Source of the DNA: Escherichia phage phiEC1 | Sequence record: KY608965.1 | Length of the DNA stretch: 64,000 bases | Reading direction: 5' to 3' (one strand) | Shown: positions 51,445-52,291 of the stretch, piece by piece | How positions within the stretch are numbered: position 1 is the stretch's first letter | Layout of the letters: the number at the start of each line of letters is the position of its first letter | Position numbers and translations under genes: made by a program | Notes under the pieces: generated by a model | Database searches by the model: none | What the model was told of the DNA's origin: nothing | Seen by the model: the letters and a program-made list of their open reading frames with translations, nothing else

Positions 51445-51472
51445 AAAAAGCCCCAACCTTTCGGAAGGGGCT
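51445..51472 (-). terminator. rho-independent terminator
   Basis: AGCCCC-UUCCGAAAGGUU-GGGGCU followed by U5. Confidence 0.7.
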
Positions 51473-51480
51473 ATACCTTG

Positions 51481-51770
51481 TCGGGGTTCCACCTGCAAGG
51501 CAAGTGTTTGTACGAAACGCCGGGATTCGAACCCGGTTATTGAGTAGTTGACGCTACTCAATATTTTTAAAAGGCCATATCTCGACCATATCCGAACATT
51601 CCGTCAAAAACGCTACTCGGCTTACGGCAAAGATATTTCCTCGAATCGATAATTCGGTGCGCCGTTTCTGCTGTGATGTAAGGGGATATTAACGAATCAT
51701 AAAGATTTATTAAGACCAGTCCTTAATCAGGGAACATCAGTCCGACGACTTGCCGGTAGCGACCCGGCTT
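51481..51770 (-). other. non-coding region with tRNA-like 3' module (possible stable small RNA or tRNA remnant)
   Basis: No ORF; canonical T-arm CCGGG-TTCGAAT-CCCGG near 51520-51536 preceded by 9-bp hairpin, but no acceptor-stem partner. Confidence 0.3.
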
Positions 51771-51771
51771 C

Positions 51772-52116
51772 TTATTTTGACATATCATCAATTTGTTCTC
51801 TACGTCTACGCCATAGATTAATTACTTCATCAACACATTCGGCGTTTGATATATGACGGCAATAATATAATGATTCGCGTTTCTGGAACCGATGTTGCAA
51901 TGGGATTTCGTTTAAAAGGTCTTTACGGTCAAAGTATTCAAAACTAGTTAACCCAGAACGGTTTTTAAGGAACTTCCAATGACCAAATTCATTTTGAACA
52001 TAGACGTAATCGGCATGCTGATACAGCGAATTAATTAACCTATTGGAAATAACTGTTTCACGTTCGTTAAAATAAAACGTTAAATCATGAACTACCAGAT
52101 AAACATTGCCTTTCAT
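51772..52116 (-). CDS. hypothetical protein
   Basis: Start MKGNVYLVVHD with SD GAGGAAAA; track ORF N-terminus would overlap tRNA. Confidence 0.5.
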   Translation of the reverse strand: MKGNVYLVVHDLTFYFNERETVISNRLINSLYQHADYVYVQNEFGHWKFLKNRSGLTSFEYFDRKDLLNEIPLQHRFQKRESLYYCRHISNAECVDEVINLWRRRREQIDDMSK

Positions 52117-52134
52117 ATTTTCCTCACTTAAAGT

Positions 52135-52211
52135 TGGTCGAGACAGAAGGATTCTAACCTTCAACCTACGGATTAGAAGTCCGTTGCTCTATACAATTGA
52201 GTTATGCCTCG
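52135..52211 (-). tRNA. tRNA-Arg (anticodon TCT)
   Basis: Hand-folded cloverleaf: acceptor CGAGGCA/TGTCTCG, anticodon arm ACGGA-CTTCTAA-TCCGT, T arm GAAGG-TTAGAAT-CCTTC, encoded CCA; 77 nt. Confidence 0.75.
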
Positions 52212-52217
52212 AATATA

Positions 52218-52291
52218 TGACCCAGACCAGATTCGAACTGGTAACCTTTCCCTTATGAGGGGACTGCTGCTAACCATTGAGCTACAGGGCC
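52218..52291 (-). tRNA. tRNA with CAT anticodon (Met or lysidine-type Ile)
   Basis: Hand-folded: T arm ACCAG-TTCGAAT-CTGGT, anticodon loop CTCATAA, D-loop with GG; one acceptor-stem mismatch; 74 nt. Confidence 0.65.

Follow-up and report, generated by a model that had tools for sequence, protein, structure and literature searches.

Counterparts of the T4 species 1 and species 2 RNAs in the two-tRNA operon of Escherichia phage phiEC1, and a conserved tRNA-like fold for the species 1 RNA

In phage T4 a cluster of eight tRNA genes is accompanied by genes for two small RNAs, species 1 (rnaC) and species 2 (rnaD). At the corresponding locus of Escherichia phage phiEC1 only two tRNAs lie beside a non-coding stretch with tRNA-like parts, and the question is whether this stretch is what is left of a lost tRNA or encodes small RNAs in its own right; an earlier reading made from the letters of the sequence, here called the sequence-only reading, had put forward both answers. 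We analysed 64,000 nucleotides (nt) of one strand of sequence record KY608965.1 (the window), in which the locus lies on the minus strand between positions 51445 and 52291. The analysis showed that both tRNAs are present, that the non-coding stretch is homologous to T4 rnaD and rnaC and syntenic with them, and that rnaC has a conserved secondary structure. As a genome feature the locus is ordinary and is already known, the operon RNAs from T4 and the tRNA pair from RB69; what is added here is a fold for rnaC backed by covariation, a candidate kissing loop, the modular distribution of rnaC and rnaD, and the correction of false tRNA calls.

When the 1.1 kb around the locus was compared with phage sequences, 761 phage records matched, the best full-length match being Escherichia phage RB69 at 94.8% identity; by its sequence, about 95% identical to that of RB69, the window is placed in the genus Mosigvirus (Straboviridae). 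Its minus-strand order, ipI, trna.4, trna.3, trna.2, ORF151c, the tRNAs, ORF150c, the non-coding stretch and e.8 (ORF, open reading frame), is that of RB69 and T4. The 290 nt of non-coding DNA were colinear, base for base, with T4 rnaD plus rnaC, and rnaC was identical to its T4 counterpart at 136 of 139 nt (97.8%), whereas the identity to T4 was 85.7% for e.8, 79.3% for trna.2 and 72.1% for trna.4 among the flanking genes. Two of the three substitutions keep pairing, a C to U change in the apical stem that leaves a G.U pair and a U to C change in the extra arm that leaves a G-C pair; the third turns a G.U pair of the long arm into an unpaired G/C. In T4, rnaC (T4s001, NC_000866 70908-71046) likewise lies on the strand of the tRNAs, downstream of rnaD and upstream of the terminator and e.8, and has the same predicted fold; the T4 record annotates rnaD and rnaC as misc_RNA directly after tRNA-Arg. 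The sequence-only reading had suggested a stable small RNA analogous to the T4 species; with colinearity, and with 84.3% identity for rnaD in addition to that of rnaC, the relation is one of homology and not merely of analogy. Taken jointly, the identity, the layout and the structure of rnaC make it highly probable that the minus strand from 52380 to 51445 is the RB69-type version of the T4 tRNA operon. The GenBank record of RB69 annotates the same two tRNAs as occur in the window and neither rnaC nor rnaD; the record of phage RB5, like that of T4, annotates both RNAs.

The rnaC sequence of the window folded at -50.6 kcal/mol (z = -4.8), with none of 200 shuffled sequences as stable, and the RNAalifold consensus and the single-sequence fold concurred. 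The ends of the RNA form an acceptor-like stem of seven positions, in which CGAUUCG at the 5' end (51648-51642) faces CGUUUCG at the 3' end (51519-51513). Where a tRNA has its D and anticodon arms there stands a long arm of 70 nt (51641-51572), an irregular hairpin closed by a 3-bp AGG/CCU helix and carrying the apical loop UUGACG (51607-51602). An A-rich single-stranded linker separates it from the extra arm (51563-51538), a 10-bp hairpin with the loop CGUCAA (51553-51548), and one nucleotide further on begins the T arm (51536-51520), CCGGG UUCGAAU CCCGG, whose 5-bp stem carries a 7-nt loop and runs directly into the 3' acceptor strand, as in a tRNA. The canonical T arm that the sequence-only reading had picked out, GGGTTCGAATCCC at 51534-51522 on the minus strand, is thus real, and so is the hairpin that precedes it, which has 10 pairs and not the 9 claimed. 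Both lie within the 3' third of rnaC. In one respect that reading needs correction: the T arm is part not of a cloverleaf tRNA but of a 139-nt RNA in which the acceptor-like stem is made by the 5' and 3' ends of the molecule itself.

Homologues of rnaC were gathered by BLAST and pattern scans. A covariance model built here (R1) scored the rnaC of the window at 160 bits as a single copy in the window, and the homologues at 90-162 bits with one copy in each locus searched. In the covariation alignment, which contains 29 homologues from about ten genera of Tevenvirinae, 96.7% of the cells were paired and 30 of the 50 pairs were changed on both sides; none of 500 shuffled controls reached any of the observed measures, and controls in which the structure was slid paired at 36-50%. 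Covariation backed every helix that varies, three helices varying at no more than one pair. In the acceptor, for example, 17 sequences have G-C at pair 4/142 where 12 have A-U; in the T stem, 14 sequences have G-C at pair 123/135 and another 14 have U-A. UUGACG in the apical loop of the long arm and CGUCAA in the extra-arm loop are exact reverse complements, and all six positions are complementary in all 29 sequences. Both loops are invariant in every genus other than Marfavirus, even where the supporting stems have been fully resubstituted; in the Marfavirus type (PWKp16 and HMGUkp2 in the alignment, and two further metagenomic contigs) they read UUGGCG and CGCCAA, an A-U to G-C replacement. 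As judged from this pattern, the two loops probably kiss.

The distribution of rnaC extended over about ten genera: Tequatro-, Mosig-, Karam-, Winkler-, Gelderland-, Moon-, Kanagawa- and Marfavirus, together with unclassified Straboviridae. Homologues occur in Karamvirus AS6 and fGh-Ecl04; Winklervirus Virsaitis27 and Serratia LC53; Gelderlandvirus Melville and Proteus ABTNLPp2; Moonvirus NM4.3; Kanagawavirus Kosakonia 305; Marfavirus Klebsiella PWKp16; Klebsiella HMGUkp2, with a Marfavirus-type sequence; Citrobacter Ursula; and the Edwardsiella PEi20 type. In most genera rnaC lies inside a tRNA cluster and on its strand (Trp-rnaC-Gly or Phe-rnaC-Trp, for example), and it has no directly flanking tRNAs in the PEi20 type, Marfavirus, NM4.3 and Kosakonia 305. 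Providencia phage PSTCR6 has rnaD between tRNA-Arg and tRNA-Ile with no rnaC after it, and, among the phages examined, those of Karamvirus, Gelderlandvirus and their relatives have rnaC between tRNAs and no rnaD next to it. Across about ten genera of Enterobacterales phages, then, rnaC and rnaD are separable modules. Among 185,579 species genomes of bacteria and archaea, none matched the 3' motif of rnaC. A scan of 51300-52400 with Rfam at E values up to 10 returned, beyond the two tRNAs, only chance-level matches to ceN54, tRNA-Sec (16.6 bits), isrK and antisense plastid untranslated-region models, and neither rnaC nor rnaD has a curated Rfam family.

In many public records the homologous DNA carries a "hypothetical protein" coding sequence (CDS) or no feature. 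Part of rnaC is called or annotated as tRNA-Lys or tRNA-Phe in phage 55 (2074-2167 of the compared locus), MK327946 (G4507) and OK210076 (KKP_3262). Both kinds of feature look like artefacts of annotation, and a practical value of the present description is that it supplies the two RNAs missing from the RB69 record and, in other records, from DNA left blank or labelled as a hypothetical protein or, wrongly, as tRNA-Lys or tRNA-Phe.

The arrangement of these parts suggests that rnaC looks like a tRNA mimic without an anticodon. It resembles the class II tRNAs (RF00005/RF01852) in its seven-position acceptor abutting a 5-bp T stem, its UUCGAAU loop, the long extra hairpin that precedes the T arm, and its location in tRNA clusters; it differs from them in lacking a D arm, an anticodon arm and a conserved anticodon, in having two U.U oppositions in the acceptor, and in having instead a 70-nt arm and a loop-loop contact. 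As a canonical tRNA it failed, with no match to RF00005 and with the match to tRNA-Sec (RF01852) far under the gathering score of 47. The 3' tail reads U-ACA in all but the Marfavirus type, which encodes U-CCA. In two of the four Marfavirus-type copies, PWKp16 (400-540 of the compared locus) and HMGUkp2, an A stands before the acceptor stem and could pair with the U of the tail. With the U-CCA and the preceding A, the end looks more like that of a real tRNA. An acceptor/T-arm module without a decoding anticodon is known from the tRNA-like domain of tmRNA, the bacterial YrlA Y-RNA-like RNAs and mascRNA, which are thereby substrates or ligands of tRNA-processing or tRNA-binding proteins. ARAGORN found no tmRNA and there was no tag reading frame, and in Rfam at E values up to 10 no family of the tmRNA, YrlA or mascRNA type matched. 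To our knowledge the body of rnaC, a closed long arm with a kissing extra arm, is unlike that of all three.

The second RNA, rnaD, begins with a 5-bp hairpin, GCCGG-GUCGCUA-CCGGC (51768-51752), with the loop GUCGCUA, followed by a long irregular hairpin at whose base GUCGUCG (51749-51743) is paired with CGGCGCAC (51664-51657) near the 3' end. Its differences from T4 are concentrated in the apical hairpin. The helices are shared with T4 rnaD (T4s002, NC_000866 71053-71171, 119 nt), the first 56 nt and the last 30 nt being nearly invariant and the apical hairpin having diverged with compensatory changes. In the RNAalifold consensus of 13 sequences there were 28 pairs, of which 7 were changed on both sides, and the apical part varied freely; the single-sequence fold gave a modest thermodynamic signal (z = -2.2). 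There is no T arm, and the CCA-like end of the T4 copy, ...CACCA, is not conserved, the rnaD of the window ending in ...CACCG. Whereas T4 rnaD directly abuts tRNA-Arg, in the window ORF150c stands between the two and extends with its stop codon into the 5' end of rnaD; the order tRNA-Arg, (ORF150c), rnaD, rnaC is kept. One hint at a function is that in the T4-like phage BW1 a single-nucleotide polymorphism (SNP) in rnaD arose convergently in all lines evolved on the semi-permissive host ECOR34 (PMC12685909).

What might these RNAs do? In tRNAs, the stack of acceptor stem and T arm is the module that RNase P and T-loop modification enzymes recognise. By analogy, recognition of this stack in rnaC would explain the excision of the RNA from its precursor and its stability. 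Mature rnaC would act in trans, keeping a tRNA-binding protein of host or phage occupied, and would be neither a decoder nor a dead tRNA gene. We offer this trans-acting mechanism tentatively and with low confidence. In a more specific form, which we consider doubtful, rnaC would be a phage-specific trans-acting tRNA mimic, an acceptor/T-arm minihelix on a kissing-locked body, which serves as a decoy or sponge for a defence system or toxin of the host directed at tRNAs, or as a modulator of RNase P, the CCA-adding enzyme or a T-loop enzyme, and rnaD would be an independent partner that tunes host-specific growth. If this is true, two RNAs that have been without a function for about 50 years would receive one, and a new class of phage counter-defence RNA would be added; the rnaC model indicates which nucleotides to mutate and which to compensate.

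Several observations weigh against the account given here. The acceptor-like stem contains five Watson-Crick pairs around two U.U mismatches. The 5' end of rnaC as annotated in T4 lies one nucleotide upstream of the first acceptor pair, and the 3' end there is G-U-A and not N-CCA, which makes maturation of the canonical tRNA type uncertain. The mature ends of both RNAs in the window were transferred from the T4 GenBank annotation, and the expression data are those of T4. A scan of metagenomes for further variants of the kissing loop returned only T4-type and Marfavirus-type copies, and the contact therefore still rests on one independent compensatory event; the invariance of the loops could equally reflect recognition by a protein. 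Phage JS10 has kept rnaD and the trailer hairpin that follows rnaC in the window and has precisely lost rnaC; phages with rnaC only and phages with rnaD only both exist, so that neither RNA is essential in all hosts. Papers of 2010, 2022 and 2025 give the function of the two RNAs as unknown (including PMC9697503 and PMC12685909), and literature searches aimed at a function returned only statements of this kind.

The main rival explanation is that rnaC, rnaD and the trailer hairpin are purely cis-acting signals for processing, stabilisation or termination, and that the stable RNAs are by-products. Most often the elements do share the strand of a tRNA cluster and are found within it or at its end, and in the T4-type phages they stand at the 3' end of the precursor beside a conserved trailer hairpin and terminator. 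The phages without rnaC, or with rnaD and no rnaC after it, would be as expected, as would a literature that gives no trans phenotype. A signal, however, would not need 139 near-invariant nucleotides, a four-way junction and complementary loops that are invariant across genera, and in the several phages named above rnaC has no direct tRNA flanks. In T4, moreover, both RNAs accumulate as discrete species classed as late RNAs, with Northern blotting as validation (PMC9697503), and the convergent rnaD SNP of the BW1 lines (PMC12685909) also counts against this rival. A purely cis-acting role is thus unlikely.

The other answer of the sequence-only reading, that the element is the decaying remnant of a tRNA present in T4 and lost here, has three things in its favour, a perfect T arm beside a long hairpin similar to the variable arm of a class II tRNA, the weak tRNA-Sec match in Rfam, and the presence of two tRNAs in this phage against eight in T4. 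T4, with all eight tRNAs, nevertheless has the same element, which therefore is no replacement for a lost tRNA, and its counterpart there is a stable, detectable RNA (PMC9697503). The identity between T4 and the window is 97.8% for rnaC against 72-86% for the neighbouring genes, about ten genera have retained the element, with compensation at 30 pairs, and it is held as tightly as a working tRNA, the tRNA-Ile of the same operon. A decaying relic is ruled out by this degree of conservation, and we regard the remnant hypothesis as very improbable.

Equally little probability attaches to the proposal that the 3' 94 nt of rnaC are a genuine tRNA with a long variable arm, tRNA-Lys(UUU). In its favour, ARAGORN has a tRNA-Lys(ttt) call on the phage 55 counterpart, the G4507 and KKP_3262 records annotate a tRNA at this place, and the string CUUUUAA in the window resembles a tRNA-Lys anticodon loop; against this, ARAGORN made no such call in the window, RB69 or T4, the Rfam tRNA model gave no match there, and the supposed anticodon loop varies across genera (UUUGAAA, UUAUCCA, UUACAAA, CUCUUAA). 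The internal acceptor that this tRNA would use has ACGGAAC as its 5' strand (alignment columns 46-52, opposite 136-142); of 20 sequences, 9 lack its pair 49/139, and there is no compensation, in contrast to the terminal acceptor, which is paired in 100% and covaries, and the tRNA-Lys reading was therefore rejected. A related idea, that rnaC with its CUUUUAA is a tRNA-Lys decoy for anticodon nucleases, was dropped, the string not being conserved in other genera. That the region encodes small proteins of 34-43 amino acids (aa) is scarcely credible: ORFs of 34, 41 and 43 aa do overlap 51412-51652 and many records place a hypothetical protein over the homologous DNA, but the substitutions are compensatory changes in stems, indels of 1-2 nt occur in the linker and the long arm, and T4 and RB5 annotate rnaC and rnaD here. 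The sequence-only reading had described 51481-51770 as free of ORFs; no substantial one is present there, mechanical ORFs being 43 aa or shorter.

The coordinates of the operon are collected in Table 1. In the order of transcription it would comprise a candidate middle promoter, tRNA-Ile(CAU), tRNA-Arg(UCU), ORF150c, rnaD, rnaC, the trailer hairpin and the intrinsic terminator. The candidate promoter sits just upstream of tRNA-Ile, and its role is predicted from its sequence, the box having been assigned by the MotA-box consensus. The late-promoter consensus TATAAATA is absent from the vicinity of the operon; going upstream on the minus strand, it is first met at 55210. The MotA-like box, the TATTAT and the terminator together point to a precursor of about 0.9 kb, which would yield tRNA-Ile, tRNA-Arg, the ORF150c message, rnaD and rnaC. 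In T4 a middle promoter stands just upstream of the tRNA cluster, and the single transcript that starts from it, about 1.75 kb long, ends after the species I RNA gene; the eight tRNAs and the two small RNAs all derive from this precursor (PMC2330249). By comparison with T4, host tRNA-processing enzymes would cut and trim the precursor of the window into the two tRNAs and stable RNAs of about 120 and 140 nt.

Table 1. Features of the tRNA operon and its small RNA genes (positions in the window)
Feature	Position	Strand	Description	Basis
Candidate MotA-type middle promoter	52354..52380	-	TTTGCTTTA box 52380-52372, 12-nt spacer, TATTAT 52359-52354	Sequence reading
tRNA-Ile(CAU)	52218..52291	-	CCA not encoded	ARAGORN; Rfam tRNA 54.0 bits
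tRNA-Arg(UCU)	52135..52211	-	Reads AGA; CCA encoded	ARAGORN; Rfam tRNA 63.2 bits
ORF150c	51772..52116	-	114 aa; between tRNA-Arg and rnaD	ORF list; RB69ORF150c
rnaD orthologue (T4 species 2 RNA)	51656..51775	-		Colinear alignment with T4 rnaD
rnaC orthologue (T4 species 1 RNA)	51511..51649	-	139 nt; tRNA-like	T4 alignment; covariance model R1
3' trailer hairpin	51490..51506	-	CACUUGC-CUU-GCAGGUG, between rnaC and terminator	Fold and conservation
Intrinsic terminator	51445..51472	-	AGCCCCUUCC-GAAA-GGUUGGGGCU, then UUUUU	Sequence and fold

The strong terminator that the sequence-only reading had placed at the end of the non-coding stretch was upheld. A simple terminator scan missed it because its stem has an internal U.U/U.U loop, and flagged instead the plus-strand antisense of the RNA hairpins. 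The 7-bp trailer hairpin and GAACCCCGACAAGG are kept in T4, RB69 and phage 55, the last with a compensatory G-C to A-U change, and the hairpin is retained in JS10 (1322-1345 of the compared JS10 locus) despite the deletion of rnaC; it could be a signal for processing. RB69 has two additional ORFs, RB69ORF148c and RB69ORF149c, between the terminator and e.8. The window has about 200 nt of non-coding AT-rich DNA (51250-51445) in their place.

The TAA stop codon of ORF150c overlaps nt 2-4 of rnaD. Its product belongs to phrog_3355, of unknown function (E = 4e-50), with a weak match to DUF2654 under the cut-off, and 425 phage records contain homologues. The homologue of the T2-type phage KAW1E185 lies directly upstream of rnaD; T4 lacks an ORF at the corresponding place. 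ORF150c showed no similarity to the CDS that follows rnaC in Marfavirus, and there is therefore no conserved protein partner next to rnaC.

With regard to the tRNAs, ARAGORN called two genes and no more in the 64 kb, each on the minus strand, and in a scan of the whole window with Rfam only these two attained the gathering score of any family; for RF00005 this score is 29 bits, and both are cloverleaves with the anticodon in a 7-nt loop. The claim of a set of only two, Arg(UCU) and a CAU tRNA, thus stood, with no further tRNA detected by either program. The CAU tRNA is identical to T4 tRNA-Ile at 73 of 74 positions (98.6%), and its acceptor, GGCCCUG/CUGGGUC-A, gives C4-G69, C5-G68 and the discriminator A73. 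These are determinants of the tRNA-Ile2 type for TilS and IleRS and occur in E. coli tRNA-Ile2. According to the RB69 genome paper, every T4-like phage with tRNAs has a CAU tRNA with tRNA-Ile signatures that is presumed to be modified with lysidine (PMC1524935). The CAU tRNA of the window, which the sequence-only reading had suggested might be of this class, is likewise presumed to be a lysidine-type tRNA-Ile2 that reads AUA.

The tRNA-Arg(UCU) is unrelated in sequence to T4 tRNA-Arg and looks like that of JS10 in a comparison by eye, made without alignment. The usual GG is missing from its D loop, AAUUGUAUA, and position 56, in the T loop UUAGAAU, is an A; a U19-A56 tertiary pair could be present in place of G19-C56. 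The RB69 copy has two additional G residues in the anticodon stem and is therefore 79 nt long in ARAGORN. In 75 ORFs of the window AGA was used at 6.8 per 1000 codons (15% of Arg codons) and AUA at 10.7 per 1000 (14% of Ile codons). In E. coli AGA makes up about 4% of Arg codons (about 2 per 1000) and AUA about 7% of Ile codons (about 4 per 1000). These values fit the earlier suggestion that the pair supplements codons rare in the host: the tRNAs would supply decoding of AUA and AGA, which are commoner in the phage.

Directly upstream of rnaC in Erwinia phage Virsaitis27, at about 1131-1205 of the compared locus, there is an apparent unannotated tRNA with the anticodon loop CUGAAGA (Phe-GAA) and the acceptor GGGAGUU...AGCUCCC-ACCA; its counterpart is the annotated tRNA-Phe of Serratia phage LC53.

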